The notes beneath the pieces were generated by a model. The model made no database searches. It had not been told where the DNA came from and saw nothing but the letters and a program-made list of their open reading frames with translations. From a virus, in the IMG/VR virus record IMGVR_UViG_3300010398_000003, positions 1 to 60,156 of that record: a DNA stretch of 60,156 nucleotides; one strand, given 5' to 3'. The translations under genes were made by a program, and so were the position numbers. Shown here in pieces: positions 19,888 through 57,933 of the stretch. The stretch's first letter is position 1. Each line of letters opens with the position of its first letter.

Positions 19888-19938
19888 CCTGTCGTGCGTA
19901 CCTCTACAGGATAGCACACGCCTTGACTGGGCTGTCAA
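19888..19938 (-). promoter_or_regulatory. promoter/operator A: 23-bp dyad element plus TTGAC-N6-GTCAA palindrome
   Basis: On the minus strand it reads TTGACA(19938-19933)-19 nt-TATCCT(19913-19908), then CCTGTAGAGGTACGCACGACAGG (19910-19888). The palindrome is TTGAC 19923-19927 / GTCAA 19934-19938. Confidence 0.6.
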
Positions 19939-20207
19939 TGCGGGGGAGGGCCGGCGATCCGCATGGTCAGCTCCGCGCCGGCCAGCTCGGCCAGCCGATC
20001 GCCGAACTCGGCCAGGTCCCGAAGCTGCCTCTCCGTCAGGTCATCCAGCTGGATCTTCAGCCCGTCGCTCGCGGCACCCTCGGTCGCGCGGAACCGGGCG
20101 AAGGAGCCACTGACCCGGAAGCCCAGGCCGGCGTCTAGGAGGGCGCGGTTCCACTCCTCGGCCGCCTTCTTCAGTGCGGCCACGATCTCGTCAGCGGCGG
20201 CCGTCAT
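19935..20207 (-). CDS. hypothetical protein
   Basis: ATG 20207 (MTAAADEIVAALKK) in frame within ORF 19935..20327. 90 aa, helical and acidic. Confidence 0.5.
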   Translation of the reverse strand: MTAAADEIVAALKKAAEEWNRALLDAGLGFRVSGSFARFRATEGAASDGLKIQLDDLTERQLRDLAEFGDRLAELAGAELTMRIAGPPPH

Positions 20208-20715
20208 CGGTAGATCCTTCCCGCTGGGCGAGGGCCGCGTACCAGAGCCCTTCGGTGTCGTAGGTGAAGCCCTCGCCGAGGGAGCGTAGGGCGATCTGCT
20301 CCAGATGGCGCTTGACGCCGGGATCAACCGTCACCGAGAAGGTGACGAACCGGCCGCCCTCGTCCAGTTTGGTCCCGGGTGGCGCGTCTTCCTGCCCGAG
20401 CATGATCCCGTGCGCGCGGGACTGGAGCCATCGGGTCAGCCACTCCTGGTTGCGGACCGTGAGTACTTCGATCACCTCGGTCTGGCCGGCCGCGTGGTTC
20501 TTGCGCAGCCACGCCAGGAACGCCTGGAGATCCTCCACCTGGAGACTCGGATTGCTGACCGACGTGGAGCCGGTCATCTCCCCCTTCACGGTCGCGGTGA
20601 TCGCCGTCTGGTTCGCGTCGAACTCGTGCCGCGCCTCGTCCTTCAGGAGCAGGGCCGCCGCCTTCGCCATGGCCTCCGCGTACGCCTTGATCCTCATCAG
20701 GTCGCGCCGGTTCAC
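20191..20715 (-). CDS. hypothetical protein
   Basis: GTG 20715 overlaps the upstream stop (GTGA), in frame within ORF 20191..21030. 174 aa. Confidence 0.55.
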   Translation of the reverse strand: MNRRDLMRIKAYAEAMAKAAALLLKDEARHEFDANQTAITATVKGEMTGSTSVSNPSLQVEDLQAFLAWLRKNHAAGQTEVIEVLTVRNQEWLTRWLQSRAHGIMLGQEDAPPGTKLDEGGRFVTFSVTVDPGVKRHLEQIALRSLGEGFTYDTEGLWYAALAQREGSTDDGRR

Positions 20716-21191
20716 CGCCGCACCTCCACATCCAGCTCGGCGAGGATGGTCTCCACCCGGCCCCACCCGTCCACCCGGATGCCCCGGGTGGACGCGCGGT
20801 ACGCGTGGCCTGGTACGACTGCCATTGCCTGGGTCGTCCTCTGGTCGCTCTCCGGATGGACGAGCGTCACCGAGACGATGACCGGGGCCGCGAGCTGGGC
20901 CTTCAGTTGGCGGATCTTCTGCCTCAGCTCCTTGCGCGTGGGCCGGCGCCTCGGCGCGTCCGCCCCGTACTGGAGGCCGCCGCGCGTGACGCTGACCGGA
21001 GGCAGGAAGGCATCGGCGGGCGCGCACCATCCGCCGTCCGCGTGCACCGGCTCCTTTCGGATCTCCTCGTACCGCGTCAGAATCTTGACCAGGGTGTCGA
21101 CGACGAGGCTGCTTCGGCGCCTGCCGAAGATGAAGCCGACCGCCTCGTCCAGCATGTCGATCAACTCGGCCGGCACCTCGACGCTGATCAC
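20712..21191 (-). CDS. ribbon-helix-helix domain protein
   Basis: GTG 21191 overlaps the ERF stop after AGGAGGGG. The N-terminus VISVEVPAELIDMLDEAVGFIFGRRRSSLVVDTLVKIL fits a CopG/MetJ-type strand-helix-helix. Confidence 0.55.
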   Translation of the reverse strand: MISVEVPAELIDMLDEAVGFIFGRRRSSLVVDTLVKILTRYEEIRKEPVHADGGWCAPADAFLPPVSVTRGGLQYGADAPRRRPTRKELRQKIRQLKAQLAAPVIVSVTLVHPESDQRTTQAMAVVPGHAYRASTRGIRVDGWGRVETILAELDVEVRR

Positions 21192-22780
21192 TTCCCCTCC
21201 TTCAGGTAGAACCGACGGGCGGCCACCCCGGCGTAGGCGCGTTCGGCCAGCTTCGCATCCAGCTGGGGCTCGGCCTGCTGGCGGTCCTTGTTGACCAGCA
21301 GCGTGACGGCGTCCAGCTCCTCCATGGAGATGGCGGTCTCGGCCAGCCACGCCGCGAAGTTGAACAGGTTCAGGTGGACAGCCGGCAGACTACGCAGCAT
21401 CGCATCCAGCGCGGCGTGCTCGTCAGCGGACACCTCGCCGCGCTCGAACAGACCCAGCAGGTCGTCCATCAGGGCGGCGATCGACTTGCCATCGGTCAGC
21501 TCGGGCGAGCGGATCCGCGTCCGCGTGTCCAGATAGGCCACACTCGGCGTGCCGATCGTCGGAGGCCAGAACTCTGGGACCGGCTCGTCGTCGTAGTTCT
21601 CCATGGGCTCGTCCTGCTCGGGTAGCTCGTCCAGGGCCTCGGCGTTGTCCGCGTGCCCGGTACCGGGAAGCGGGCCCATCCTGGCCCGGTCCTCCTCGCG
21701 CTGGAGGGCACCCTGGCGCTCGGCCTGGACGGTGCGCAGCCGCTCGCCGGCCGCCGCGCTTACTCCGCCACCCTGAATGGCGTGGCTGATCCGCTTGTCC
21801 ACGTGGCGCAGGTCGTCGAACGTCCGGCACTCCACGATGGCCAGCTCCAGCTCCTCCGCCAGGGTGCCGTCGGCCGGCTTCCGGGTGGCCTCGGCGAGTA
21901 CCTGGCCGTGTCGGCTGTGCCGCTCAACGGGGCCGACGCCTTCGTGCGACCACGGCAACCGTGCCTCGCCGACCGCGCCCAAGGTCTTGTTCAGCGCTAC
22001 CCACTCGTCCCGGTTGCGCGGCGTCTCGATGATCTCGGCGAGCCGGGCGCCGAACCGGGCCGACATCTCCTCGGTGCGCCCCTCTGGCTCCATCCGCTCC
22101 CAGAACGCCGCCAGATCCTTCGGCTCGGCCCTGGCGATCCGGGCCTGGAAGTCACCCCGGTCGCGTTCCTCGCGCCGGCTCTCGGCCCGCTGGTGGCCCG
22201 CGCTGGCCGCGTCCGCGTCGTCGTCGTCCTCCGCCGGGGCGAGCCCCGTCACGGCCTGGAAGCAGTACCGCCGGGCATAGGTGATGTGCGAGCCGATCGT
22301 CTTCGGATCCGCCGTACCGGGTTTCGGCAGCGGCCAGAAGCCCCCATCCTCCTCGCCGGAGGTGTGTCGGAGGATGTAGGCGAGACCGAAACCCTCCGGC
22401 GTCATGGTCGGCTTGGCCGAGAAGCTTAGACCGTACCGGCCCAACATGCGCATGCCGACCCGGCTCACGTCGGCCAGGTTGGCGTACCGGTACCGGTAGC
22501 TGCGTTTGCCCTCCTTCGCCTCGATGTCCGCCTCGTCCGCCGCGATCACGTCGGGAAGCTGTGACTGGAACAGCGCCAGGGCGGCGGCGAGGGAGGCGGG
22601 GGACTCCGACAGCAGGACGCGGGGAGGGCCGGCTATCGCGCGCTTCAGCAGGTCAGCCAACTGCTCGTCTTCCGGCAGGCTGGCGGGATCGAGGACGACG
22701 GGGGTGGCGGGGCCGAACGTCGCGTCCAGCTCCTCTTCGGTGACCGGGATCTGGCGCCGGTCAGGTTGCGCTCGGGACAT
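21188..22780 (-). CDS. ERF-family single-strand annealing recombinase with long C-terminal extension
   Basis: YRYRYANLADVSRVGMRMLGRYGLSF and GSHITYARRYCFQAVTGLAPAEDDDD match the conserved ERF core. 530 aa. Confidence 0.8.
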   Translation of the reverse strand: MSRAQPDRRQIPVTEEELDATFGPATPVVLDPASLPEDEQLADLLKRAIAGPPRVLLSESPASLAAALALFQSQLPDVIAADEADIEAKEGKRSYRYRYANLADVSRVGMRMLGRYGLSFSAKPTMTPEGFGLAYILRHTSGEEDGGFWPLPKPGTADPKTIGSHITYARRYCFQAVTGLAPAEDDDDADAASAGHQRAESRREERDRGDFQARIARAEPKDLAAFWERMEPEGRTEEMSARFGARLAEIIETPRNRDEWVALNKTLGAVGEARLPWSHEGVGPVERHSRHGQVLAEATRKPADGTLAEELELAIVECRTFDDLRHVDKRISHAIQGGGVSAAAGERLRTVQAERQGALQREEDRARMGPLPGTGHADNAEALDELPEQDEPMENYDDEPVPEFWPPTIGTPSVAYLDTRTRIRSPELTDGKSIAALMDDLLGLFERGEVSADEHAALDAMLRSLPAVHLNLFNFAAWLAETAISMEELDAVTLLVNKDRQQAEPQLDAKLAERAYAGVAARRFYLKEGK

Positions 22781-22820
22781 GTGTCTCTCCTTGCCCGCTG
22801 GTCCGGGTGTCGAGCGTATA

Positions 22821-22843
22821 TCTGTCGAGCGACACTATACAGG
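22821..22843 (-). promoter_or_regulatory. 23-bp dyad element H upstream of the ERF gene
   Basis: The minus strand reads CCTGTATAGTGTCGCTCGACAGA. Its TAG is the stop codon of 22835..23338. It lies 40 nt upstream of ATG 22780. Confidence 0.5.
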
Positions 22844-23338
22844 AGCGACGGCGTCCAGGTCGACCCAGACCCGCAGATCCTCCTCAGTGATCTTCACCCA
22901 GTTCAGGCGTAGCCTCTGGGCCTGCTTCAGGCAGTTGATCGTTCCCGGGCTGTGCGAGCGGCACTGGATGCCCACCACAAGATCCGGCATCTCGGTGCGC
23001 AGCATGAAGCCGTTGCGGGCGCGTCCTGCGTACCGGCCCAGACTCCAGTCCGGCAGGTACGACGGCGGTATCGAGGCGCCACACCGGGCTCCGGCCTCCT
23101 CCGCCCAGGTGTCCACCCCGGACGCACCACCCTGGGCCAGCCGCACCACCTGAGGGCGTCGGCGGGCCACGACCAGGCGTACCACGGCGATGACCACCGG
23201 ACGCCAGATGATCGACATCTCCACGTCGCCTCGCTCCCGGCGCGAGCCGGCCACCACCAACCGGAACTCCTCCCGGACGGGGGTGGCCTTCTCCAGCGCG
23301 CGGTTCACCTTGTCCAGGTAGGCCGGAACCCTGCTCAC
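22835..23338 (-). CDS. DUF2493 / SLOG-like protein
   Basis: LVVAGSRR followed by RLAQGGASGVDTWAEEAGARCG. This is the GGAxGxD glycine-rich loop typical of the phage DUF2493 branch of the SLOG/DprA-like fold. Confidence 0.6.
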   Translation of the reverse strand: MSRVPAYLDKVNRALEKATPVREEFRLVVAGSRRERGDVEMSIIWRPVVIAVVRLVVARRRPQVVRLAQGGASGVDTWAEEAGARCGASIPPSYLPDWSLGRYAGRARNGFMLRTEMPDLVVGIQCRSHSPGTINCLKQAQRLRLNWVKITEEDLRVWVDLDAVAPV

Positions 23339-24893: not shown

Positions 24894-25250
24894 CTACGCC
24901 GCCGCGCGCCGCTCCGAACAGGCCGGCGAATGCTGCCAGCGGTCGGTGGCCACCAGCCAGTCGACGATCTCGGACAGCGGGAACCGCTGGAGGGTCTTGT
25001 TCGCGCTGACCACCACCGCGTGCTTCTCGTCGGGGGTGGGGAACGGGCGCACCTCCTTGCCGTTGCGCATCTTCCGCTCATCCACCGGTTGGGCGTGGCT
25101 GCGCCAGCGCCACTGCTGGACCGTGTTGGCCGGCCGGCCGGCCAGGGCGGCCACCTGGAACTGGTAGAGCAGCGGATCCGCGTCCCGGGACAGCTCCGGC
25201 CACTGCTTATGGATCCACTTCAGGGCGGCCCAGAACGGGTCAGCGGCCAT
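24894..25250 (-). CDS. HTH DNA-binding protein, first gene of the leftward operon (Cro/Xis-like candidate)
   Basis: 118 aa. GAGGAGG RBS on the minus strand. YQFQVAALAGRPANTVQQWRWR is a helix-turn-helix-like segment. Confidence 0.55.
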   Translation of the reverse strand: MAADPFWAALKWIHKQWPELSRDADPLLYQFQVAALAGRPANTVQQWRWRSHAQPVDERKMRNGKEVRPFPTPDEKHAVVVSANKTLQRFPLSEIVDWLVATDRWQHSPACSERRAAA

Positions 25251-25253: not shown

Positions 25254-25295
25254 TGTACCTCCTCGGACTTGACGTGTAGAGGTACACTATACAAT
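25254..25295. promoter_or_regulatory. divergent control region with dyad element J
   Basis: Inverted repeat TGTACCTC (25254-25261) / GAGGTACA (25279-25286). The sequence CGTGTAGAGGTACACTATACAAT (25273-25295) matches the dyad element on both strands. Candidate hexamers are TTGACG 25269-25274 and TACAAT 25290-25295 rightward, and TATAGT leftward. Confidence 0.5.
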
Positions 25296-25333: not shown

Positions 25334-25741
25334 GTGCGGCTGGAGGTAGCCCAGGATATCGTGCGGGCCCGCTGCTGGGGCCGGTGCGAGGGCTGCGGCG
25401 CCTTCGGCCCGGTGCAAGTGCATCACCGTCGCGCAAGAGGCGTCGGTGGTGTGCACCGTGCGGAGGCCGAGCGGGCCAACGATCCGCGCAACCTGCTCGC
25501 GCTCTGCCCGCCCTGTCACGCCAAGACCGAGGACGCCTCCACCTGGAGACAGTGCGAGGAATTGGGTTGGCGCGTCGAGCACGGCATCCGGGACCCGTAC
25601 GAGATCCCGGCGTACCTGCACACCGTCAACGGCGTGGGCTGGTGGCTGCTGACCGCAGAGGGCGGCTACCGCTGGCAAGACCTTCCGGCCGACCACCGGA
25701 TCACCTGGAGAGAGGACCACGAGGATGGGGACCAAAGCTGA
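25334..25741 (+). CDS. HNH endonuclease
   Basis: CEGCG...VHHRRARGVGG...NLLALCPPCHAKTE is the canonical HNH Cys/His/Asn arrangement. GTG start after GAGGGAGG. Confidence 0.85.
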   Translation: MRLEVAQDIVRARCWGRCEGCGAFGPVQVHHRRARGVGGVHRAEAERANDPRNLLALCPPCHAKTEDASTWRQCEELGWRVEHGIRDPYEIPAYLHTVNGVGWWLLTAEGGYRWQDLPADHRITWREDHEDGDQS

Positions 25742-26897
25742 CGATCTGGTCCAGATCGTCAAGAACATGGAGAAGATGGGCTGGGGTGTGCGCAATGCCC
25801 GGGGCTCCGCCGACGACAAGCTGATCACCGCCCCCAACGGTATGACCATGATGATCAATGTCCGGCCGACATCGAACAACCGTAGCCGCGCCAACTCCCT
25901 GGCCGACATCAAACGTATCGGGTACCACGATGCGTGGGCCCGGTACCAGGAGGCCAACGCCCGGCCAGCCCACCCCAACGGCACCCCGGAGGCGATCGCG
26001 GTGAAGCCCACCGTCCAGGCGGTACCGGTCCAGATGCGGACCGAGAGCGTGCGGGTCACGCGCCGGATGGCCGAGGAGTACCTGTCCCGCCCGCCGGCCC
26101 AGCTGGCCACCGGGGAACGGATCCTCCAGCGCAATCTGGACGGCAACCTGGTGGCCCGGTACGCCGCCTGGATGCGGGCCGGCGAATGGCTCGACAACCA
26201 CCCGCAGGGCTTCGTCTTCGCCCCCGACGGCGGCCTGATCGAGGGCATGCACCGCTGCTGGGCGATCGTCGAATCCGGCCACGAGCCGATCGTGCAGATC
26301 ACCTACGACGCCGACCCGGCCAGCTTCGCCACCATCGACCAGGGCAAGCGGCGCACCTCCGCGAACGTCCTCCAGACCCTCGGCGTCGAACGGGACGCCC
26401 ACCACCTGGCCAGCGCGCTGAAGGTGCTCTGGTGCTGGGACCGCTGGCTGGCCGGCAAGCCAGACGCGGTCGACTGGCGCGGCTGGCACCAGCTGGTCAT
26501 GTCTGCCCCGGAGATGATCGCCACCCGGACCAGGCATCCCCAGCTGGAGGAGTTGGGCGCAGGCGGACGACTCATGGTGGCCCGCATCAGGGGTGTCCCG
26601 GCGGCCGGCGTCGCCGCCCACTACCTGGCCGCCCGTGCCCACCCCGGAGGAGAGAAGGCCCTCGCCGAGTTCGTGACCGGCATCCGGGATGGCGAGATGC
26701 TCGCCAAGGGTGACCCGCGCCTGGCCGTCCGTAACTGGATCCTGGCCCAGCAGGGCATCCGGCAGGTGGATAAGCGGGAAAGGCAGCTGCTCGCGCTGAT
26801 CAAAGCGTGGAACGCCTGGGTGACCGGCAAGAGCATCCGTCAGATGGTCGTCGGCGGCACCGAGCCGCTCTCCCTCCCGTACCACCCGAAGGTCTGA
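25725..26897 (+). CDS. ParB-like N-terminal (nuclease/Srx) domain protein
   Basis: 390 aa. QRNLDGNLVARYAAWMRAGEWLDNHPQGFVFAPDGGLIEGMHRCWAIVESG matches the phage ParB-like core (QR..y...m..G.W....dG.HR..Ai). Confidence 0.6.
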   Translation: MGTKADDLVQIVKNMEKMGWGVRNARGSADDKLITAPNGMTMMINVRPTSNNRSRANSLADIKRIGYHDAWARYQEANARPAHPNGTPEAIAVKPTVQAVPVQMRTESVRVTRRMAEEYLSRPPAQLATGERILQRNLDGNLVARYAAWMRAGEWLDNHPQGFVFAPDGGLIEGMHRCWAIVESGHEPIVQITYDADPASFATIDQGKRRTSANVLQTLGVERDAHHLASALKVLWCWDRWLAGKPDAVDWRGWHQLVMSAPEMIATRTRHPQLEELGAGGRLMVARIRGVPAAGVAAHYLAARAHPGGEKALAEFVTGIRDGEMLAKGDPRLAVRNWILAQQGIRQVDKRERQLLALIKAWNAWVTGKSIRQMVVGGTEPLSLPYHPKV

Positions 26898-26962
26898 ACT
26901 TGACCTATCCCCGTCCGGCCGTCGTACGGTGGCCGGACGGGGGCACCGAGAGGAGAACCATC

Positions 26963-27409
26963 GTGCACGTGCTGTTCGCCCTGTCGATCGCCGTCGGCGT
27001 CGTCGCCGCCCTCGCCCTGCCGCTGCCACTGCTCGGCCGGCACCTGGAGCGCCGCAAGGCCGCCGCCGTGCGGGCCGTCGCTGTCCCGGAGACCGTCGCG
27101 CGTCCATCCGGCCCGGCGCTGGCCGACCTGGACGTGGCCGCCGCGCTCGACGAGTACGAGACCGTGGTCGGCGCCGCGTACCGGCAGTGCGCCAGCCGGA
27201 TCGGCGCCGCCCTCACGCTGTTCGCGGTGAAGGGCCAGATCGAGGTTCCGGCGGTCAGGGCCCTGTCCAGTATCGAGATCGCGTTGCTGCACCTGCGCCA
27301 CGGCGTGCTGGAGCCGGCGTCCGCGTACCGGCCGGCGACCACCGCCACCTCGGAGCACGACTTCGCCGGTCTGCGCGCGCTCCTGGCCGCCGAAGACGCG
27401 CTGGCCTGA
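26963..27409 (+). CDS. membrane-anchored hypothetical protein
   Basis: GTG 26963 lies 8 nt after GAGAGGAG, in frame within ORF 26807..27409. N-terminal TM helix VLFALSIAVGVVAALALPLPLL. Confidence 0.5.
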   Translation: MHVLFALSIAVGVVAALALPLPLLGRHLERRKAAAVRAVAVPETVARPSGPALADLDVAAALDEYETVVGAAYRQCASRIGAALTLFAVKGQIEVPAVRALSSIEIALLHLRHGVLEPASAYRPATTATSEHDFAGLRALLAAEDALA

Positions 27410-27422
27410 TCTCCACCTGGAG

Positions 27423-27464
27423 TTGTCATCGGGGGCGGTCCCGTGTAGAGTGAGTGTCGACAGG
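27423..27464 (+). promoter_or_regulatory. promoter E with 23-bp dyad element
   Basis: TTGTCA (27423-27428)-17 nt-TAGAGT (27446-27451). The dyad element CGTGTAGAGTGAGTGTCGACAGG is at 27442-27464, 23 nt upstream of ATG 27488. Confidence 0.55.
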
Positions 27465-27487
27465 AAAACTCCGGAGAGGGAGTAGCC

Positions 27488-28627: not shown

Positions 28628-28633
28628 CCGACC

Positions 28634-36232: not shown

Positions 36233-36387
36233 TCGCCTGGATCGTGATGCTGGTGGCCGGCGTGGTGATGTTCGCTGTCGGCCTGCCCGGCCTGCTGCTG
36301 ACCCGGGAGGCCAAGATGCTGGGCCGCTGGTTCCTGGTCATCGTCGGGGGCATCCTGCTGGCCGCGCTCGCGCTTGCTATGCTGTAG
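36229..36387 (+). CDS. 52-aa membrane peptide
   Basis: ATG 36229 overlaps the upstream stop (ATGA). Two hydrophobic helices. Its TAG stop lies inside dyad element F. Confidence 0.45.
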   Translation: MIAWIVMLVAGVVMFAVGLPGLLLTREAKMLGRWFLVIVGGILLAALALAML

Positions 36388-36403
36388 ATCATAGCTCGAC
36401 AGG
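36381..36403 (+). promoter_or_regulatory. 23-bp dyad element F
   Basis: GCTGTAGATCATAGCTCGACAGG, preceded by CTAT as in elements B and C. It lies 12 nt upstream of ATG 36416 and runs into the GGAGAGGAGAGG RBS. Confidence 0.55.
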
Positions 36404-39212: not shown

Positions 39213-39235
39213 ACTGTCGTGTGCCGGCCTACAGC
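39213..39235 (-). promoter_or_regulatory. orphan 23-bp dyad element K
   Basis: The minus strand reads GCTGTAGGCCGGCACACGACAGT. Its TAG is the stop codon of 39229..39735. It points at the terminator with no downstream gene. Confidence 0.4.
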
Positions 39236-40072: not shown

Positions 40073-40099
40073 CTACAGTGTAGACGCACATCCTACAGG
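40073..40099. promoter_or_regulatory. divergent control region I with dyad element
   Basis: Core palindrome CTACA-G-TGTAG at 40073-40083. The rightward element AGTGTAGACGCACATCCTACAGG at 40077-40099 lies 14 nt upstream of ATG 40114. A leftward half-site faces ATG 40031. Confidence 0.5.
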
Positions 40100-40895: not shown

Positions 40896-40984
40896 ATCTT
40901 GACCGAGGAGTGATCCTGGTGCTGGCCTGCGTGGTGCTGATCGGGCTGGCTGGTCTCACGGTGGTACTGGCTAGCATCCTGTAG
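40892..40984 (+). CDS. 30-aa hydrophobic peptide
   Basis: GTG 40892 overlaps the upstream stop. Sequence: VNLDRGVILVLACVVLIGLAGLTVVLASIL. Its TAG stop lies inside dyad element G. Confidence 0.35.
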   Translation: MNLDRGVILVLACVVLIGLAGLTVVLASIL

Positions 40985-41000
40985 AGGGTGCCTTGACAGG
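40978..41000 (+). promoter_or_regulatory. 23-bp dyad element G
   Basis: CCTGTAGAGGGTGCCTTGACAGG, 73 nt upstream of ATG 41074 and about 335 nt upstream of terL. Confidence 0.5.
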
Positions 41001-50414: not shown

Positions 50415-52633
50415 CCGCACCGTGTACCGACTGCGACCAGCCGGCGGACGACTTCGTGGCGGTCACCGCTGACGACGAGGACCAGGTGGACGAGAACGTG
50501 GATCCGCGCGGTACCAAGGTCCGCGTGTTCGGCCCGATGCTCATCGCCCCGTACGGGAAGAAGACCGGCGACCGGCGGCGCTTCGCCGCGCAGTCCCTCA
50601 CCAACCGGGACACCCCGCTCGCGGTGAAGTGGCAGCGCGCTGACGAAAAGGGGCACTCCACCAGTGTCGTCGTGGCCGCGATCGACGAGATCGAGCACCG
50701 TGACGACGGTGTATACGGCTCCGGAATCATCTTCGATCCGGACCCCGACCAGCTGCCCCGCCTCGCCGAGGACGTGGCCGAGTTCAACCTCCTGGCCTCC
50801 CAGGGCGTCCTGGGCCCGTCGGTGGACCTGGACGCGATGGAGTTCCGCGCGCTGCCGCCCGAGGGCGACGAGCATGCGGGCGAACTAGCGGCCGGCGAGG
50901 AGCGTCCGGAGATCGAGGTCACCTCGGGTCGGATCTCCGCCGTCACCGCCGTGGTCATCCCGGCCTTCGCCGAGGTGGACCGGTTCGCGATCCGCGAGGA
51001 GGATGCGGGCGAGTACGCGGCCCGCAAGGAGGCGGCGTACTCCGCCCTCACGGCGGCCGTGCGGGCGACCGGCTGGACCGATATGCCCTTGGCCGCGCCC
51101 GGTACCGCGTGGGACGCGGAGGCCGCCCAGCAGCGGATCAAGTCGTGGGCCGGTGGCGACATGGGCAAGTATGCCCAGGCGTTCCTCTGGAGCGGCGAGC
51201 CGGCGCAAAACCTGACCTCGTACAAGTTCCCCCTCGCCGACGTGATCGGTGGCCAGCTCAAGCTGGTCCCGAAGGCCGTCACCGCCGCGTCCGGTGTGTT
51301 GGCCGGTGCGATGGGTGGCACGAGCCTGCCCATGGCCGACCAGGCACGCATGCACGGCGTCCTCGTCGCACTGAAGTCACGCTTCGACCCGGATCAGGAC
51401 GGCGACGACGACCGGGACGACCTGAGCGAGAACGGCGAGGGCGCGCACGGGCTCGATGCGACCACCTTCACCGCGCTGGTGGATGAGCTGGGGCCGGAGC
51501 TGGACGGCGAGGCGGCCACCTTCGGCGCGCGGTTCGACGCGATCGTAGCGAAGCTACGTGGACGCAAGGGGATCGCGGACCCGGCAGCCGTCGCCGCCTC
51601 CATCGGCCGGGCGAAGTATGGCAAGAAGGGCATGGCCCGGCTGCGGGCCGGCGTCAGCCCGAGCAAGGTGAAGCCGCTCGCGGCCAGTGGCCGGCTGACC
51701 GCGCTGATCGCAGCGGCCGTGACCGGTGACTGGGCCGGCGTGGAGGAGGACGACGTGCGCGAGCTGGCCAGCCTGACCGCGAGTGGCTACGTGCCGGCGG
51801 CCGTGGACTCCACCTGGTTCGACAACCCGAAGCTGGACCGGCCCACTCCGCTCCGGATCACCGAGGACGGCCGGGTGTTTGGGCATGTCGCCGACTGGAA
51901 GACCTGCCACACGGCCTTCGCCGGCTGCGTGCGCGCCCCGAAGTCCAAGAGCAACTATGCGTACTTCCACGTGGGCGAGACGCTCACCGACAAAGGCCCC
52001 CTCGCAGTCGGGAAGCTGACCATCGGTGGTGGCCATGCAGACGGCCAGTTCGGGTACCGTGCGGCGGCAGCCCACTACGACGACGTGGCGACTGCCGTCG
52101 CCGAGGTGCGGGCCGGCGAGGACAAGCACGGCATCTGGGTGGCCGGCCGGCTCCTGCCCGGTGTGCAGGGTACCGAGCGGGAGGCCGAGCTGCGTCGCTC
52201 GCCGCTGTCCGGTGACTGGCGTCCCATCGGTGGCCACCTGGAGATGATCGCCGCGCTGGGGGTCAACTCGCCGGGCTTCCCGATCCCGCGCGTGGCCTTG
52301 GCCGCCTCCGGCGCGGTCGATCCGGAGGCGGAAGGCCAGGTGGTCTCGCTCGTCGCGGCCGGCGTCCTGGCACCCGCCCGGCCGGCGATGACATTCGACC
52401 TGGAGCAGGTACAGACGGTGGCCCGCGCGGCGGCCCAGGCTGTCCTGGACGAGCAGGCGGCGGCCGGCCGGCGCGCCAAGGCCCAGGGACTGTTCGCTGT
52501 GATGGACGACACCGACGACCAGCAGAACCTGGTCATGCGGCGCCGGAAGGCCAAGAAGGCGGCCATGGCCGTATCCTCGGGCGCGAAGGCGGTCGGCGCG
52601 CGGTCGGCCGGCGGCGACTACCAGGGGGGGTAG
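50411..52633 (+). CDS. prohead (capsid maturation) protease with long C-terminal extension
   Basis: 740 aa. KWQRADEKGHSTSVVVAAIDEIEHRDDGVYG, GVLGPSVDLD and ISAVTAVVIPAFAEV parallel the HK97/S78 protease His, Ser and strand motifs. A second similar block lies near AGEDKHGIWVAGRLL...LSGDWRP...VNSPGFPIPR. Confidence 0.75.
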   Translation: MTAPCTDCDQPADDFVAVTADDEDQVDENVDPRGTKVRVFGPMLIAPYGKKTGDRRRFAAQSLTNRDTPLAVKWQRADEKGHSTSVVVAAIDEIEHRDDGVYGSGIIFDPDPDQLPRLAEDVAEFNLLASQGVLGPSVDLDAMEFRALPPEGDEHAGELAAGEERPEIEVTSGRISAVTAVVIPAFAEVDRFAIREEDAGEYAARKEAAYSALTAAVRATGWTDMPLAAPGTAWDAEAAQQRIKSWAGGDMGKYAQAFLWSGEPAQNLTSYKFPLADVIGGQLKLVPKAVTAASGVLAGAMGGTSLPMADQARMHGVLVALKSRFDPDQDGDDDRDDLSENGEGAHGLDATTFTALVDELGPELDGEAATFGARFDAIVAKLRGRKGIADPAAVAASIGRAKYGKKGMARLRAGVSPSKVKPLAASGRLTALIAAAVTGDWAGVEEDDVRELASLTASGYVPAAVDSTWFDNPKLDRPTPLRITEDGRVFGHVADWKTCHTAFAGCVRAPKSKSNYAYFHVGETLTDKGPLAVGKLTIGGGHADGQFGYRAAAAHYDDVATAVAEVRAGEDKHGIWVAGRLLPGVQGTEREAELRRSPLSGDWRPIGGHLEMIAALGVNSPGFPIPRVALAASGAVDPEAEGQVVSLVAAGVLAPARPAMTFDLEQVQTVARAAAQAVLDEQAAAGRRAKAQGLFAVMDDTDDQQNLVMRRRKAKKAAMAVSSGAKAVGARSAGGDYQGG

Positions 52634-52635
52634 CG

Positions 52636-52812
52636 ATGGCGTGCGGATGCCAGGGTGGGCAGTACGGCACGGTGGCGGAGCCGGCGCAGAAGGCGTACGA
52701 GTCGGCCCCGAAGGACGCGCCCGTGCGGCGGTTCGAAGGCGTGGACGCGTACAGCGAGGCACGGCAGTACGCAGCCCGTAACGGTGGCGGACGCGTCCGC
52801 GAGGTGGACTGA
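52636..52812 (+). CDS. 58-aa hypothetical protein
   Basis: ATG 52636 lies 3 nt after the protease stop. Sequence begins MACGCQGGQYGTVAEPAQKAYESAPKD. Below the ORF-track cut-off. Confidence 0.4.
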   Translation: MACGCQGGQYGTVAEPAQKAYESAPKDAPVRRFEGVDAYSEARQYAARNGGGRVREVD

Positions 52813-52817
52813 TCCAG

Positions 52818-53213
52818 GTGGACGCGGCTGAACTGTACGCGGCCCGGCGTGCCAACGAGGACGTCGACTGGCTGGTGGCTCAGCTTGCCGTCCTCGCCCT
52901 GGAGCCGGCGCTGAGGCCGGAGACGCGCGCGCTCGGCGCCGATCCGACCGCCCAGGGCTGGCCGGCCGAGTTCGCTTCGACGGGCACCGCGCTACACCCG
53001 GCCTCGACCGAACGGCTCATGGAGTACTGGTCGCACGGTGAGGGCGCGGCGAAGGTGCGCTGGCCGGAGCCGTGTGCGTTCTGCCGCTGCCTGGACCACC
53101 TGGCTAAGTACTTCCCGAAGGACCCGAAAGGGCTCTGCGCCAACCTGGAGCGGCGAGCGACCGGGCACTGGCCGAACCCCGAGCATCACCGGACCCACCA
53201 CTGCCCGTGCTGA
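52818..53213 (+). CDS. hypothetical protein of the head module
   Basis: 131 aa. GTG follows GAGGTGG. LMEYWSHGEGAAKVRWPEPCAFCRCLDHLAKYFPKDPKGLCANL is a block I recall as commonly encoded near capsid genes in actinophages. Function unknown. Confidence 0.6.
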   Translation: MDAAELYAARRANEDVDWLVAQLAVLALEPALRPETRALGADPTAQGWPAEFASTGTALHPASTERLMEYWSHGEGAAKVRWPEPCAFCRCLDHLAKYFPKDPKGLCANLERRATGHWPNPEHHRTHHCPC

Positions 53214-53301
53214 CGCGGTAGTCCACAATGGACATACGTGAGCGCGCATGAGCTGGTGATGCACTGGGTATATGGCGGGAAACCTCCGAGAGGACACCGT
53301 C

Positions 53302-53511
53302 ATGGTCAAGAAGGACGCCCAGAAGGACCCGACCGAGGCTCAGGCCGCCGACCCGGAACGGCAGGCGCCGGACACCACCCAGCGGGAGCAGAGCGCCCCG
53401 ACCCGGGGCCCAGCCGGTGAGGTGGTCGGGGAGCGGCCCCTTTCGGCCGACGAGCGCCGACTGATGCACGAGCAGGACGTCGAGCGGGGGGCGGCCGACG
53501 TCGGCATGTAG
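53302..53511 (+). CDS. hypothetical small hydrophilic protein
   Basis: ATG 53302 after GAGAGGA, in frame within ORF 53272..53511. 69 aa. Confidence 0.45.
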   Translation: MVKKDAQKDPTEAQAADPERQAPDTTQREQSAPTRGPAGEVVGERPLSADERRLMHEQDVERGAADVGM

Positions 53512-53585: not shown

Positions 53586-53864
53586 TCAGGCGGACGCGCG
53601 GCGGCACGGTCGCGTACCGCAGTGCGCGCAGAAGCCGGTCAGGCTAGCTGGCTCTGTCAGCTCGTACATCCCATCTGGGATGTGCTCCGAGTACCGGGAC
53701 GGCGATTCACGGGGGCTTCCGTCCCGGTCAAGGTAGTAGTTCCCGCTGTGAAGGCGCAGCACGGTGATCCCACGTGCGCGGGATCGCGTCACGTCCCCGT
53801 CGATCACTGTCGCGAGCCCGGCGGCGATTCGGACTAGGCTGCCATTCGGTGGGCGGTCCTTCAC
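53586..53864 (-). CDS. hypothetical protein, last gene of the island
   Basis: GTG 53864 overlaps the glycohydrolase stop (GTGA), in frame within ORF 53586..54071. 92 aa. C-terminal CAHCGTRPC. Confidence 0.5.
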   Translation of the reverse strand: MKDRPPNGSLVRIAAGLATVIDGDVTRSRARGITVLRLHSGNYYLDRDGSPRESPSRYSEHIPDGMYELTEPASLTGFCAHCGTRPCRRASA

Positions 53865-54856
53865 GCCGTCGCCCCCTCCAGCTCCTGGCGAAACTCGATC
53901 TTGCTGTACCAGTCGGCCGGCCAGGCGGTGAAGCCGTACGCGGCGCCGGCCAGCGCGCCCGTGATCGCCGCGATCGAGTCGCTGTCGCCGCCCGTCGCGG
54001 CGGCCCGCCGGATCGCCAACACCGGGTCGCCGGGAAATAGGAGCAGGCAGGCCAGCGCGGTGGCCAGGCACTGCTCGGCCGTCCAGCCTTCACCCGTTAT
54101 CACGCACGGGTCCGCGTACCGGTCGTCCACCTGGAGCGCGGTCTCGACTGACCAGAGTGCGTCCTGGCATTCGAACCATCCCATGCGGGCCACCTGGAGC
54201 GGACGCGGGAACGCGCCCTCGCGGGTCGCCATCGCCCAGTCCTGGCACTCGCTGACCAGGTAGGGCAGCAGATCACTCAGCGAGCAGCCGGTGGCGAGGG
54301 CCCGGACCGCCTGGGCGGTCAGCTGCGCGGCGGCTACGGCCGTGGGATGCCGGTGGGTGATGACCGCCTGCATACGCGCGGCGTAGATCATGTCCATCTC
54401 GCCCCACGGCAAGAGCGCGACTGGTGCCACCCGCATGTTGGCACCGCAGCCCTTGGACAACTGGTCGCCAGCCCGGAATAGAGGGGCACCACCGGCCAGC
54501 CGGCGCAGCGAGGTCATTACGGTCATGCCCGGGTGGCGCCCGTCGTGGCCACCGTACCGGCCGTCCAGGTAGGCAAGAAACTCGGTCCGGACCGCCTCGC
54601 GGAGAAGGTACGAACGTCCCAGATCGGTCATGAGCGGCGCAGTCTGACGGGTGGCGGACGCGATGGCCTCGGCCAGGGCCAGCGTCATCTGGGTGTCGTC
54701 GGTGACCCTCCAGTCGTGAACGGCGGGTGTGGCTGGCCCGAGTTGGCCGTACCTGTGCAGGATCTCGCCGTAGCGCATGAACTCGGTCTCCGCGCCGAGC
54801 GCGTCGCCGTAGGCGGTGCCGAACAGGACACCCATCCTGGTGTTGTGGTCGATCAT
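53861..54856 (-). CDS. ADP-ribosylglycohydrolase (ARH/DraG family)
   Basis: ATG 54856 after AGGAGAGGAG. 331 aa. GTAYGDALGAETE, VTDDTQMTLALAEA and TGGDSDSIAAITGALAGAAYG are the metal-binding signature blocks of the ARH family, and all are intact. Confidence 0.9.
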   Translation of the reverse strand: MIDHNTRMGVLFGTAYGDALGAETEFMRYGEILHRYGQLGPATPAVHDWRVTDDTQMTLALAEAIASATRQTAPLMTDLGRSYLLREAVRTEFLAYLDGRYGGHDGRHPGMTVMTSLRRLAGGAPLFRAGDQLSKGCGANMRVAPVALLPWGEMDMIYAARMQAVITHRHPTAVAAAQLTAQAVRALATGCSLSDLLPYLVSECQDWAMATREGAFPRPLQVARMGWFECQDALWSVETALQVDDRYADPCVITGEGWTAEQCLATALACLLLFPGDPVLAIRRAAATGGDSDSIAAITGALAGAAYGFTAWPADWYSKIEFRQELEGATA

Positions 54857-55320: not shown

Positions 55321-55372
55321 CCTGTCGTGCGTACCTCTACAGCATAGCCCGCCTTGACGCACCCGTCAAGGC
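55321..55372 (-). promoter_or_regulatory. promoter/operator B: sigma70-like hexamers, palindrome and dyad element
   Basis: The minus strand reads TTGACG (55369-55364)-17 nt-TATGCT (55346-55341), then GCTGTAGAGGTACGCACGACAGG (55343-55321). The palindrome GCCTTGACG / CGTCAAGGC at 55351-55372 contains TTGAC-N6-GTCAA. It lies inside the 3' end of CDS 55337..55804. Confidence 0.65.
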
Positions 55373-55804
55373 GTCCCACTGGGCCCGGTACGCATCCCGC
55401 AACATCTCTGCCGTGAACCCGCCGACACGGCGTACCCGATCGTGGACCGCCTGCCGGCTGATATCCAGCACCTCGGCCACCACCTCGCGCGGAACATCCT
55501 GCTGGTAGTAGCCAATGTGCCAGGCGCATGCCCGGCCCAGCGGCGTACCCCACCAGCGGAAGTCCGGTTGGACGTGCAGTTCGGTCGCGATGTCGTGGGC
55601 GGCCTGGCGCGCCCGGGTGGCCAGCGTGGTCTCGTCGGCGTCCGGGGTATCCATGGCCAGCTCGCGCCAGTAGAAGCGGGAGACTCCGGCCACCGTCGCC
55701 TCGCACTGCTCGCCAAGGATGGCGCGGGCTCGCCGGTACAGCACCGCGATCTCGCGGGTCAGCTGCGCGTGCACGGTCCGGCCGGTGGCGGGATTCGGGA
55801 TCAC
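55337..55804 (-). CDS. HTH-containing protein (regulator candidate)
   Basis: 155 aa. REVVAEVLDISRQAVHDRVRRVGG is an HTH-like segment. The stop TAG lies inside element B. Confidence 0.55.
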   Translation of the reverse strand: MIPNPATGRTVHAQLTREIAVLYRRARAILGEQCEATVAGVSRFYWRELAMDTPDADETTLATRARQAAHDIATELHVQPDFRWWGTPLGRACAWHIGYYQQDVPREVVAEVLDISRQAVHDRVRRVGGFTAEMLRDAYRAQWDALTGASRRAML

Positions 55805-56371: not shown

Positions 56372-56430
56372 CCTGTCGTGTCATGCTCTACAGCATAGGC
56401 CACCTTGACGGTGATGTCAAGGTGGCCTAT
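56372..56430 (-). promoter_or_regulatory. promoter/operator C: sigma70-like hexamers, 15-bp-arm palindrome and dyad element
   Basis: The minus strand reads TTGACA (56420-56415)-17 nt-TATGCT (56397-56392), then GCTGTAGAGCATGACACGACAGG (56394-56372). A perfect palindrome ATAGGCCACCTTGAC-N6-GTCAAGGTGGCCTAT spans 56395-56430. Confidence 0.65.
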
Positions 56431-57195: not shown

Positions 57196-57557
57196 ACCGC
57201 CCGCGTGATGAAGCTGCGCAGAAGCGTCAGCACATGCTCGATGGCGCCGAGCTGGTCGTCGATCTGCTCGGCCATGAGCGAGAGCGCCGCGCCCTGTTCG
57301 TCCAGCTTTTGGCCCACCTCGGCCAGGGCGGCGGCGATGCCGGCCCCGGTGATATGCGCGACGTGGCTCGGCAAGGTGATCTGCGCCATCTCCGCCGCAT
57401 ACCTGGTCTGCGTGCCGGCGAGCGACAGGCTACTGATCATGGGATCCTGGAGTGCATCCCGGGCCAGCAGGAATGCCGTCTTGACCTCGTTCTCAATGAA
57501 TGCGATAAGCGCCAGTACCGCAGGCTGGAAGTCGTCCAGCCCCGCGTATCCGGTCAC
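57192..57557 (-). CDS. hypothetical all-helical protein
   Basis: GTG 57557 after GGAGAGAGGGG. 121 aa, Ala/Leu/Gln-rich. Confidence 0.55.
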   Translation of the reverse strand: MTGYAGLDDFQPAVLALIAFIENEVKTAFLLARDALQDPMISSLSLAGTQTRYAAEMAQITLPSHVAHITGAGIAAALAEVGQKLDEQGAALSLMAEQIDDQLGAIEHVLTLLRSFITRAV

Positions 57558-57593
57558 GGCTACGCCCCTCTCTCCTATCGGGAATTGCGCGGA

Positions 57594-57788
57594 TCAGCGG
57601 TCGGGCATCTCGTTCGGCAGATCCTTGACGTAGCGGTCCGGGTTGCCCAGAGGGCCGCTCACGTCCTCGGGCTTGACGGGCTGGGCCTTCGCCTGCCGCT
57701 CGCGCGCCTCCTCGTTCTCCTTGACGCGGCGGGCCAGGTCGGCGTCGGACTTGGCGGTGAGGCGTGGCTGCCTGCGCCAGTTGACCAT
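57594..57788 (-). CDS. hypothetical small charged protein
   Basis: ATG 57788 after GGGAGA, in frame within ORF 57594..57851. 64 aa. First ORF after element D. Confidence 0.45.
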   Translation of the reverse strand: MVNWRRQPRLTAKSDADLARRVKENEEARERQAKAQPVKPEDVSGPLGNPDRYVKDLPNEMPDR

Positions 57789-57910
57789 GGTGATCTCCCA
57801 TTCCTGATAGAGGACTGGTGCGGGCGGGGGGCCGGTCTTGGTTGTGGGCACGGACCGATGTCCGGCACCCTGCCGGGTGCGCCCTGGCGGCAGCCTGCCC
57901 CGCCCGCTTA

Positions 57911-57933
57911 CCTGTCGAGTATACCTCTACAGG
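57911..57933 (-). promoter_or_regulatory. 23-bp dyad element D at the outer edge of the island
   Basis: The minus strand reads CCTGTAGAGGTATACTCGACAGG. A possible TGGACC-17 nt-TATACT hexamer pair overlaps it. Confidence 0.5.

Follow-up and report, generated by a model that had tools for sequence, protein, structure and literature searches.

A repeated 23-bp dyad on the promoter cores of an uncultivated actinobacterial phage, interpreted as an operator

A 60,156-nt stretch of viral DNA (IMG/VR record IMGVR_UViG_3300010398_000003; the window), comprising the complete ~60-kb genome of an uncultivated actinobacterial phage, contained eleven copies of a symmetric element, TGTAG-N9-CKACAGG, which had a fixed spacing, overlapped the cores of nearly all recognisable host-type promoters, in three registers, and was conserved at orthologous sites and through a family of related phages. 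We consider it somewhat probable that this dyad is an operator for a dimeric phage regulator occluding the host-type promoters of the non-structural transcription units, and most likely it is a known kind of control element in a new phage family.

The eleven copies of the original prediction were all real, and their coordinates and strands were correct. Seven exact matches (copies A, E, F, G, I, J and D) were found in the window against 0.00 expected from 100 dinucleotide shuffles of it, and 12 strand-hits with ≤1 mismatch against 0.37 expected. K and H had one mismatch and B two; C was the most degenerate, yet clearly related to the other copies. A 23-nt PWM recovered 11/11 reported sites (18–34.5 bits) and no further ones, the next best match in the window scoring 10.5 bits and shuffled sequence giving a mean of 0.27 matches at ≥12 bits. 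All 11 copies were intergenic (chance ~3e-11; intergenic DNA is 11% of the genome), overlapping neighbouring genes by ≤9 nt, and exactly one lay in each divergent intergenic region, of which there are three (C, G and D). The dyad family (families D5 and D12) was the sole repeated intergenic signal in an unbiased repeat search. The sites and their promoters were as follows, with orthologues named by related genome (L006 to L092); the measured distances agreed with the claimed 12–73 nt to the start codon (122 nt for D).

19888..19910, minus strand: site A, CCTGTAGAGGTACGCACGACAGG, exact match, 15 nt upstream of ATG 19872; promoter TTGACA-19-TATCCT, the -10 TATCCT (19908-19913) fused to the left edge of the dyad and the -35 TTGACA (19933-19938) within the palindrome TTGAC-N6-GTCAA (19923-19938); orthologues in the same register in L090, L091 and L092.
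22821..22843, minus strand: site B, CCTGTATAGTGTCGCTCGACAGA, 40 nt upstream of an ERF recombinase gene (ATG 22780); -10 TATAGT (22834-22839) at motif positions 5-10, kept there in the L091 and L092 orthologues; -35-like TCGACC (22858-22863).
25273..25295, both strands: site C, CGTGTAGAGGTACACTATACAAT, one copy between face-to-face divergent promoters; rightward TTGACG (25269-25274)-15-TACAAT (25290-25295) on the plus strand to an HNH gene at 25334 (38 nt), leftward -10 TATAGT (25286-25291) on the minus strand to a 118-aa HTH gene, ATG 25250 (22 nt); region conserved in L090, L091 and L092.
27442..27464, plus strand: site E, CGTGTAGAGTGAGTGTCGACAGG, exact match, 23 nt upstream of a DUF932 gene (27488); promoter TTGTCA (27423-27428)-17-TAGAGT (27446-27451), the -10 at motif positions 5-10, where the L090 and L091 orthologues have TATAGT or TATGGT.
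36381..36403, plus strand: site F, GCTGTAGATCATAGCTCGACAGG, exact match, 12 nt upstream of ATG 36416; -10 TATGCT (36378-36383) fused to the left edge; L091 orthologue TACGCT in the same register.
39213..39235, minus strand: site K, GCTGTAGGCCGGCACACGACAGT, one mismatch, with neither promoter hexamers nor a downstream gene; overlaps the stop codon of 39229-39735(-), just upstream of a bidirectional terminator hairpin (16-bp stem) in a convergent gap.
40077..40099, both strands: site G, AGTGTAGACGCACATCCTACAGG, exact match, in a divergent gap; rightward TTGCCT (40050-40055)-18-TACAGT (40074-40079) on the plus strand to ATG 40114 (14 nt), minus-strand -10 TAGGAT (40090-40095) at positions 5-10 to ATG 40031.
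40978..41000, plus strand: site H, CCTGTAGAGGGTGCCTTGACAGG, one mismatch, with 41074 lying 73 nt and the large terminase gene 335 nt downstream; candidate -10s TAGCAT (40972-40977) and CATCCT (40975-40980) just left of the dyad.
55321..55343, minus strand: site I, GCTGTAGAGGTACGCACGACAGG, exact match, 19 nt upstream of ATG 55301, first in an operon ending with an ADP-ribosylglycohydrolase gene; promoter TTGACG (55364-55369)-17-TATGCT (55341-55346), the -35 within the hairpin GCCTTGAC-N6-GTCAAGGC (55351-55372); orthologues in L006 and L007.
56372..56394, minus strand: site J, GCTGTAGAGCATGACACGACAGG, exact match, 23 nt upstream of ATG 56348; promoter TTGACA (56415-56420)-17-TATGCT (56392-56397), the -35 within the hairpin GCCACCTTGAC-N6-GTCAAGGTGGC (56399-56426); orthologues in L006 and L007, with different hairpin arms but complementarity kept.
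57911..57933, minus strand: site D, CCTGTAGAGGTATACTCGACAGG, exact match, in the divergent gap between island and capsid operon, 239 nt upstream of the capsid start and separated from ATG 57788 by a conserved 122-nt leader; -10 TATACT (57918-57923) within the spacer, motif positions 11-16, where L006 has TAGACT and L007 TAGCGT; -35-like TGGACC (57941-57946).

The invariance of the N9 spacing was borne out: in the window and its closest relatives TGTA-N12-ACA[GA] occurred 27 times, against 0–6 times for each other spacing from 6 to 18. The arms had been described as inverted repeats, and the symmetry was confirmed, but the element was larger than described. Since G9 (8/11) mirrors C15 (9/11) and A8 (10/11) mirrors T16 (6/11), the half-sites are 9 nt long, sCTGTAGAG and CCTGTCGwG, flanking a 5-nt centre, and this symmetry reaches further than a -10 box or a start site requires. 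The half-sites were also polar (A6 against G18), consistently oriented with transcription, and lay ~15 bp apart centre to centre, about 1.5 helical turns. A purely symmetric dimer site would not usually be polar, and such a distance is atypical for simple HTH dimers; both count against an operator.

A sigma-A/sigma-70-type -10 hexamer (TANNNT) was overlapped by 10/11 copies, K being the only one without a promoter. The hexamer joined the left edge of the dyad at A, F, G (rightward), I and J, formed positions 5-10 at B, C (leftward), E and G (leftward), and formed positions 11-16 at D; the register was kept at orthologous sites of related genomes, and the spacer sequence drifted. These three cases can be accounted for only if the DNA is recognised as a unit. 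Counted from the inferred start sites, the dyad spans -14 to +14, the classical location for repression by bacterial repressors, with the right arm essentially untranscribed at D and the left arm in the discriminator at A, I and J.

The differing register had been noticed before and had been taken to argue for an operator or phage-specific promoter rather than a host -10 box. An operator is still the best reading. A phage-specific promoter has to be given up, given the canonical host-type hexamers at the sites (TTGAC(A/G)-17-TATGCT at I and J, TTGTCA-17-TAGAGT at E, TTGACA-19-TATCCT at A) and the finding of no phage RNA polymerase or sigma factor encoded in the window. The exclusion of a host -10 box was half right: at B, C (leftward), E and in most distant relatives, positions 5-10 are the -10 hexamer.

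That the dyad marks the starts of transcription units was supported. Six of the eight generic sigma-70 promoter predictions in the 60-kb window coincided with dyad copies, and none fell in the structural region (1–20 kb). Every recognisable promoter of the window carried a dyad, so that no dyad-free promoter was available as an internal control; this ubiquity counts against the operator reading. The capsid-tail operon had been placed outside the system, and indeed no co-oriented, promoter-coupled copy was found for it, but its divergent control region does contain site D.

A motif search in related phages showed the dyad to be widespread in a large family of uncultivated phages with ~60-kb genomes. 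Three clades had 1.6–1.9 copies per 10 kb (0.11 expected); an outgroup clade, which is without the dyad, had 0.18. The arms varied by clade (ATACAAG, AGACAGA, CGACAGG), and the TGT...ACA core persisted even between very deeply diverged phages, with capsid identity as low as 37%. Among members further from the window, the -10 box coincided with the left arm, and the right arm fell where transcription presumably starts (C at -1, A at +1); in such clades promoter-intrinsic preferences alone could explain the dyad. Outside the family, the conserved promoters of Actinoplanes phage phiAsp2 (TTGACACTTCACAGTCAAGCCTG-TAATGT, about 12 copies) had the same skeleton, with the -35 inside a TTGAC...GTCAA palindrome and a TANNNT -10 that immediately follows CCTG. 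phiAsp2 is similar in genome size and head-gene layout, with 37% identical capsid proteins; unlike in the window, neither the right arm nor the dyad was found at its promoters, and its non-structural genes are unrelated. Because this skeleton lacks the right arm, the right arm and its spacing are an add-on and not a general promoter requirement.

An alternative that we think rather unlikely is that both arms are read directly by the host RNA polymerase, possibly modified by the phage (e.g. by ADP-ribosylation), without a separate repressor. The left arm would then supply the TG and the TA of the -10, and the right arm a C/A-N-ACAG at the start site or initial transcribed region; promoter strength, the choice of start site or promoter escape would depend on the arms, and the dyad symmetry would be incidental. 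Nearly all forward sites of clades 2 and 3 fit this form (TTGACn-17-(TG)TANNNT-N6-(A/C)(T/G)ACA(G/A), then directly a Shine-Dalgarno sequence). C16-A17 matches the pyrimidine(-1)/purine(+1) start-site preference of promoters, the CCTG-TANNNT is common to phiAsp2, the element is at every recognisable promoter with a polarity always following transcription, and the phage has a virion-module ADP-ribosyltransferase besides the ADP-ribosylglycohydrolase. In the window and its closest relatives, however, the best -35/-10 pair was shifted 8 bp upstream at A, F, G (rightward), I and J, and 6 bp downstream at D, from the register used elsewhere, and still both arms and the N9 were conserved at orthologous sites. 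CGACAGG occupies +8 to +14 at the upstream-shifted sites, with TGTAG in the discriminator, and -6 to +1 at D. We know of no sequence requirement of RNA polymerase at any of these arm positions. Direct reading also leaves the mirrored G9/C15 and A8/T16 pairs unexplained, K has the element without a promoter, and the phiAsp2 promoters work without a right arm.

We regard as very improbable an element acting in RNA, in which a 5'-leader hairpin or sequence (CCUGUAG...CGACAGG, shortly before the Shine-Dalgarno sequence) controls mRNA stability, processing (an intercistronic RNase III-type site) or translation initiation, by analogy with the start-associated sequences (SAS) of Cluster K mycobacteriophages. 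In most copies the right arm does abut the Shine-Dalgarno sequence, with the start codon 12-23 nt away, read-through transcripts would contain internal copies, and H and D folded better than shuffles (z = -3.9 and -2.7). But 9/11 copies folded no better than shuffles (z between -0.8 and +1.0), and among 79 family sites most cells were unpaired save three invariant T-G-T/A-C-A pairs, with a covariation score (0.077) no better than slid controls (up to 0.148) and no co-variation between positions 1-2 and 22-23 (GC...GG was common). The RNA-hairpin reading thus failed on both folding energy and covariation. By the inferred promoters, moreover, the left arm is untranscribed at A, F, I and J and neither arm is transcribed at D, and copies C and G work on either strand.

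Least probable is a site for a host transcription factor or nucleoid protein coupling phage expression to host physiology: a phage binder could not be assigned and the TGT...ACA core was kept down to 37% capsid identity, but the arms are clade-specific, as expected for a co-evolving phage protein, no actinobacterial regulator that we know of has a TGTAG-N9-CGACAGG site, and a search of bacterial genomes for the more specific motif CTGTAGAGGTA-N4-CGACAGG found no clusters (only 2 isolated matches among 185,579 species genomes, neither actinobacterial).

For an operator, the following phage proteins were candidate binders.

24894-25250: 118-aa HTH protein, adjoining site C
33249-33488: 79-aa HTH_17/MerR-like protein
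33485-34120: 211-aa GerE/LuxR-type HTH protein
34604-34792: 62-aa RHH protein
55337-55804: 155-aa island HTH protein

The 79-aa protein gave a weak match (E 0.0017) to a PHROG named 'transcriptional repressor', and none of the candidates tested matched an immunity repressor PHROG. Counting against the operator reading, the 118-aa protein has evolved very fast and the family of the 155-aa protein, for which no structural neighbour was found, is also present in the dyad-less outgroup clade.

The operators of lambda, P22 and 434 and the LexA box CTGT-N8-ACAG are dyad-symmetric and overlap the promoter core (-10/+1), and one classical operator can control divergent promoters. The dyad shares the arm core CTGT...ACAG with the E. 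coli LexA box, but its CTGT-to-ACAG spacing is N13 instead of N8, and the LexA box of actinobacteria differs in sequence (TCGAAC-N4-GTTCGA). Unlike classical phage operators, found in one or two tripartite clusters, its copies lie over about 11 promoters. The closest known operator systems are the Cluster A stoperators (L5 gp71, Bxb1, TipsytheTRex) and those of R4/phiJoe-type Streptomyces phages, with >10 copies of one short conserved site in short intergenic spaces (PMC9283540, PMC10276819). As in these systems, many copies are distributed over the genome, site polarity tracks transcription, and a promoter site may be joined by roadblock sites, for which copy K might serve here (PMC9283540, PMC10276819). 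Stoperators, in contrast, are 13-14-bp, asymmetric, bound by a monomer with two DNA-binding domains and mostly away from promoters, whereas 10/11 copies of this 23-bp dyad overlap promoter hexamers; stoperator phages are temperate with an integrase, which was not found in the window. Cluster O mycobacteriophages have >30 copies of a 17-bp palindrome, TGTTCGG-N3-CCGAACA, likewise a multi-copy dyad through an actinophage genome and conserved among relatives (PMC4351075), but unlinked to predicted SigA promoters, often inside genes and without orientation bias, whereas our copies are all intergenic and all but one overlap a promoter. The Cluster K SAS, too, closely precede some of the non-structural genes and share one orientation, and the extended SAS (ESAS), of putative function, are imperfect inverted repeats (PMC3203893). 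The SAS are, however, 13-bp, asymmetric, contain the ribosome-binding site and adjoin the start codon, and the ESAS have 17-bp arms and a variable 4-13-bp spacer; the dyad has an invariant spacer, lies 12-122 nt from the start codon and overlaps -10 hexamers.

In the preferred reading, an operator, every non-structural transcription unit would start from a host sigma-A/HrdB-type promoter with the two-fold symmetric sCTGTAGAG-N5-CwCGACAGG on its core (-10 to start-site region). We infer that a putative phage-encoded, probably dimeric DNA-binding protein binds there and represses, rather than activates, by occluding RNA polymerase or blocking open-complex formation. The single copies at C and at G would each control both leftward and rightward promoters (at D a promoter was recognisable on the minus strand only), and the promoter-less K at the convergent junction would be a roadblock only. 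The early, replication, 'island' and packaging-proximal units may thus be switched together; as no integrase or partition genes were found in the window, the system probably serves for temporal shut-off or global silencing and not for classical integrated lysogeny.

The dyad examined here is a 23-bp element, sCTGTAGAG-N5-CwCGACAGG (motif positions numbered 1–23), for which eleven copies (A to K) were considered. They are given below with the -35 hexamer and spacer length (nt) where these could be assigned.

19888–19910, minus strand: copy A; -35 TTGACA, spacer 19
22821–22843, minus strand: copy B; -35 TCGACC, spacer 18
25273–25295, both directions: copy C
27442–27464, plus strand: copy E; -35 TTGTCA, spacer 17
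36381–36403, plus strand: copy F; no clear -35
39213–39235, minus strand: copy K
40077–40099, both directions: copy G; -35 TTGCCT, spacer 18
40978–41000, plus strand: copy H; no clear -35
55321–55343, minus strand: copy I; -35 TTGACG, spacer 17
56372–56394, minus strand: copy J; -35 TTGACA, spacer 17
57911–57933, minus strand: copy D; -35 TGGACC, spacer 17

The pattern of the original prediction, TGTAG-N9-CKACAGG, had 7 exact matches against 0 expected, and the eleven reported copies scored 18–34.5 bits with a position weight matrix, against ≤10.5 bits for all else in the window. The predicted fixed N9 was borne out: the equivalent TGTA-N12-ACA[GA] occurred 27 times in the window and its closest relatives, against 0–6 times for each other spacing from 6 to 18. 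The element had also been described as an inverted repeat; the symmetry held, but the half-sites had been drawn too short. Each reached 9 nt (left, sCTGTAGAG; right, as reverse complement, CCTGTCGwG) around a 5-nt centre in the 11 copies, with G9 (8/11) mirrored by C15 (9/11) and A8 (10/11) by T16 (6/11). The dyad combined the two-fold symmetry and fixed half-site spacing of an operator, k = 12 being uniquely enriched. The sole systematic break in symmetry was A6 (11/11) versus G18 (9/11), a polarity which ran with the downstream gene at nine sites; C and G served both directions.

All 11 copies were intergenic, in a genome with an intergenic share of 11%, and an unbiased repeat search returned the dyad family as the sole repeated intergenic signal. 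Each of the three divergent intergenic regions held exactly one copy (C, G and D), and one of the two convergent regions held the orphan copy K. The dyad ended 12–122 nt from the start codon, with the Shine-Dalgarno sequence outside the site. Copy K had no promoter hexamers and lay between a stop codon and a GC-rich hairpin (about 39135–39190; 16-bp stem, T-rich tails on both strands) in the gap between the genes at 38847–39128 (+) and 39229–39735 (−). This hairpin, directly downstream of K, is likely a bidirectional terminator.

An exact 123-bp direct repeat (1–123 = 60034–60156) formed both ends of the window, indicating that the genome, of about 60,033 bp, is complete and either circularly closed or terminally redundant; its G+C content was 69%. 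The same contig was present in public metagenome assemblies, and no near-identical phage was found in GenBank. Its capsid protein shared 37% identity with the capsid of Actinoplanes phage phiAsp2 and about 33–34% with those of Microbacterium phages. This capsid was common to >230 IMG/VR contigs and delimited a large uncultivated family (contigs of 55–63 kb). Gene calling with a self-trained codon model gave six blocks, whose functions were assigned from Pfam and PHROG searches.

25250 to 18364, leftward: replication/recombination block, with a DnaD/O-like initiator and ERF recombinase
25334 to 39128, rightward: early block, with HNH, DUF932, a tRNA-like cluster, an exoribonuclease, small HTH and RHH proteins and a Tad2-like protein
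40031 to 39229, leftward: short gene pair
40114 to 53511, rightward: packaging/head block, with terminase, portal, MuF and a 1324-aa protein with a C-terminal ADP-ribosyltransferase domain
57788 to 53861, leftward: "island" block, its last gene an ADP-ribosylglycohydrolase
58173, over the junction, to 18363: capsid-tail-lysis block

Neither an integrase nor a partition gene was found in the window by these searches. In the head module, a MuF-like protein was followed by the 1324-aa protein with its terminal ADP-ribosyltransferase toxin domain (45374–50238, +), and the ADP-ribosylglycohydrolase (53861–54856, −) closed the island operon driven by dyad site I; the two enzymes may be an injected modifier paired with its reversal enzyme. 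The final early-block gene (38847–39128, +) encoded a Tad2-like anti-Thoeris protein (Pfam, 4.7e-18) and a weak Acb2/Tad1-like match lay close by in a related contig (L091, 19476–20462), suggesting that the early operon closes with an anti-defence cassette.

Within the early block, ~2 kb (29104–31127) was without genes or codon periodicity and contained tRNA T-arm-like strings; its position, and partly its sequence, was kept in three related contigs (L090, 12570–13521; L091, 12557–13690; L092, 12104–12969). ARAGORN with default settings found no tRNA in the window, tRNA-Phe(gaa)-like (30276–30349) and tRNA-Thr(ggt)-like (30451–30524) sequences at relaxed thresholds, and tRNA-Ile, tRNA-Leu and tRNA-Pro at default settings in the equivalent gaps of the relatives. 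The stretch resembles a tRNA cluster, either degenerate or unusual. It had been considered as a hidden regulatory RNA or origin tied to the dyad, and was dropped when it proved to be a tRNA/tRNA-like cluster free of dyads.

A TANNNT hexamer overlapped or adjoined 10 of the 11 copies, all except K (TATCCT, TATAGT, TACAAT/TATAGT, TAGAGT, TATGCT three times, TACAGT/TAGGAT, TAGCAT and TATACT). These were sigma-A/sigma-70-type arrangements, with a TANNNT -10 upstream of a gene and a TTGACA-like -35 at 16–19 nt spacing. A generic sigma-70 scan of the window returned only 8 promoter-like sites, six of them on dyads (B, C, D, E, I and J), and none in the structural region at 1–20 kb. The -10 box occupied one of three registers. 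At A, F, G(+), I and J, TATCCT, TATGCT or TACAGT was fused to the left edge of the dyad, with TTGACA, TTGACG or TTGCCT, where present, preceding that hexamer by 17–19 nt. At B, C(−), E and G(−), it was TATAGT, TAGAGT or TAGGAT at motif positions 5–10, and at D it was TATACT within the spacer (positions 11–16). In all three registers the dyad reached from about -14 to +14, counted from the inferred start, and so overlapped the promoter core.

For the closest relatives, the analysis covered both the capsid side and the DUF932 side of two genomes (capsid identity 73% and 69%) and, for a 62-kb contig, the DUF932 side. Queried alone, the DUF932 protein had matched nothing in IMG/VR or the species genomes. 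Eight of the copies (A to F, I and J) had orthologues in these relatives, with arms kept and spacers drifting, and each retained its site-specific -10 register. For example, the left edge of A was TATCCT or TACTCT, positions 5–10 of E were TAGAGT, TATAGT or TATGGT, and positions 11–16 of D were TATACT, TAGACT and TAGCGT across three genomes. Two non-coding blocks around D, 57789–57910 (minus-strand leader) and about 57990–58172 (upstream of the capsid gene), were strongly conserved in the window and two relatives (L006 and L007). The conserved CAACCAAGACCGGC lay in the long leader following site D, and CGGTCGTTGCG...ACGGTGCTGGCGGGAGGGCCGGCCGGGACGTGTGGAGC immediately preceded the capsid start; neither block contained a sigma-70-like promoter or an Rfam match.

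In a wider set of 80 IMG/VR loci from a capsid-profile search, three clades had 1.6–1.9 dyads per 10 kb, compared with an expectation of 0.11 and a density of 0.18 in an outgroup clade. The module of the distant clades was [GC-rich arm]-TTGAC-N6-GTCAA-[arm']-TG-TANNNT-N6-(A/C)(T/G)ACA(G/A)-SD-ATG, in which the left arm was the -10 box and the right arm lay at the presumed start site. In clade 3 (L024, 6499–6563; L027, L035, L038, L059 and L076), two facing dyads, 19–25 bp apart, gave back-to-back divergent promoters ahead of the capsid-side island, compared with one shared dyad in the divergent regions of the window. Phage phiAsp2 had about 12 near-identical promoters, TTGACACTTCACAGTCAAGCCTG-TAATGT, which shared the skeleton of the dyad family but lacked the right arm and showed no enrichment at the dyad spacing. 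Its use as a control without the right arm for finding the binder was uninformative, since only structural genes were common to it and the window. A stricter motif, CTGTAGAGGTA-N4-CGACAGG, gave isolated single matches and no clusters in IMG/VR and 185,579 species genomes, consistent with chance.

A TTGAC-N6-GTCAA palindrome enclosed the -35 hexamer at 19923–19938, 55351–55372 and 56399–56426 and at many family loci; its phiAsp2 counterpart was TTGAC-N8-GTCAA. Over 64 family promoters, the arms flanking this palindrome co-varied (score 0.231, versus 0.149 ± 0.013 in shuffles, none of 500 as high, and ≤0.168 in slid controls), indicating that the -35 hexamer was embedded in a hairpin. We infer that the -35 hairpin terminates or insulates the upstream unit; it looks like a terminator or insulator hairpin to which the following promoter is joined, the -10 region supplying the T-rich tail.

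We lean towards reading the dyad as an operator for a phage-encoded global regulator, whose binding is predicted. The key argument is that dyad geometry and promoter geometry were conserved independently, which a symmetric protein reading the whole duplex can account for. The inferred start at A, I and J falls at about motif position 10, so that the left arm is discriminator DNA and the right arm occupies +8 to +14. For B and E the right arm lies at +1 to +7, and for D essentially upstream of the inferred start. That both arms are conserved at a fixed N9 in all three registers cannot be explained by what RNA polymerase or the mRNA requires. Against this, the dyad might be intrinsic to the promoter, a reading that we consider improbable and that stays viable because, in the distant clades, the -10 box and start site fall on the arms and because no recognisable promoter lacks the dyad. 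Action at the RNA level, as a hairpin, leader or processing site, is a weak alternative: 9 of the 11 copies folded no better than shuffles (z between -0.8 and +1.0), slid controls matched or exceeded the covariation seen across 79 family sites and Rfam gave no match, so that an RNA hairpin or leader element was rejected. A promoter read by a phage-encoded RNA polymerase or sigma factor was likewise discarded because no such gene is encoded: among about 60 window proteins none had a Pfam or PHROG match to either, and the sole related signal was a sub-threshold sigma-region-4-like HTH resemblance in the family of a 155-aa island protein.

On the operator reading, a symmetric protein would recognise the dyad duplex as one unit. 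Bound at -14 to +14, such a regulator would act from a repressor's position, and at each of the divergent regions C and G its one copy would shut off two promoters together. Five encoded HTH/RHH proteins were candidate binders, none of them linked to the dyad site.

24894–25250, minus strand: 118-aa HTH protein, beside site C
33249–33488: 79-aa HTH_17/MerR-like protein
33485–34120: GerE/LuxR-type HTH protein (Pfam 24.5 bits, cutoff 23.5)
34604–34792: 62-aa RHH/NikA-like protein
55337–55804, minus strand: 155-aa island HTH protein

No PHROG match to an immunity repressor was found, and repressor-named matches were only weak, for the 79-aa and 62-aa proteins. The 118-aa protein had no detectable homologue in a 5.8-billion-protein set; rapidly diverging positional orthologues (28–42% identity) were present in L090–L092. 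The 155-aa protein was conserved in clades 1–2 and also present in the dyad-less outgroup, which counts against it as the binder. HTH_17 matched 6 of 12 members of its family, and its very confident AF2 model (pLDDT 95.8) was all-alpha with a terminal HTH-like helix pair. Foldseek found no structural neighbour in the PDB (best E-value 0.47), a profile search against PDB sequences gave nothing significant, and variation in the recognition helix had no obvious correspondence with the arm variants.

To our knowledge, the LexA box, CIRCE and ECF-sigma promoters differ from the dyad in spacing and sequence, and they were set aside for this reason. The closest analogues in behaviour are the stoperator systems, multi-copy operator/stoperator sites being described in Cluster A mycobacteriophages and R4-like Streptomyces phages (PMC9283540, PMC10276819). 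Stoperators are asymmetric 13–14-bp sites bound by a monomer (PMC9283540), mostly away from promoters and in temperate phages (PMC9283540, PMC10276819), so the dyad does not belong to the Cluster A type: it is a 23-bp dyad, 10 of 11 copies lay on promoter hexamers and no integrase was found, although its orientation followed transcription as in Cluster A. It is also unlike the 17-bp palindromes of Cluster O, which have no promoter linkage (PMC4351075). Cluster K has SAS/ESAS elements, whose spacer varies and which are coupled to the ribosome-binding site (PMC3203893); the dyad, in contrast, has an invariant spacer, excluded the Shine-Dalgarno sequence and lay at 12–122 nt from the start codon. 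By analogy, the dyad is predicted to work like a classical symmetric operator over -10/+1, multiplied across about 11 promoters.

The concept itself is unsurprising, conserved promoter motifs and multi-copy operators being already familiar in actinophages, and the dyad is another instance of this class of control element in a new phage family. If the dyad is an operator, it illustrates how such a site, embedded in a promoter, can shift its position against the -10 box with its own geometry intact. It then also predicts the transcription units and points to a single master regulator, and it would also offer compact, strong, repressible sigma-A promoters (TTGACA-17-TATGCT plus operator), possibly useful in high-GC actinobacteria. 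One short site would then give access to the entire regulatory programme of a phage family that is widespread in soil and metagenomes and has no cultured member. A bolder version, possible in our judgement and open to considerable doubt, is that an undescribed regulator (the 155-aa HTH or the GerE-type protein) silences every host-type promoter of this large, uncultivated, integrase-less ~60-kb actinophage family at once, a roadblock copy included. If true, this would be a symmetric, promoter-embedded counterpart of the stoperator system, and such global silencing could be the basis of either a non-integrative carrier state or an early-to-late switch made in a single step.
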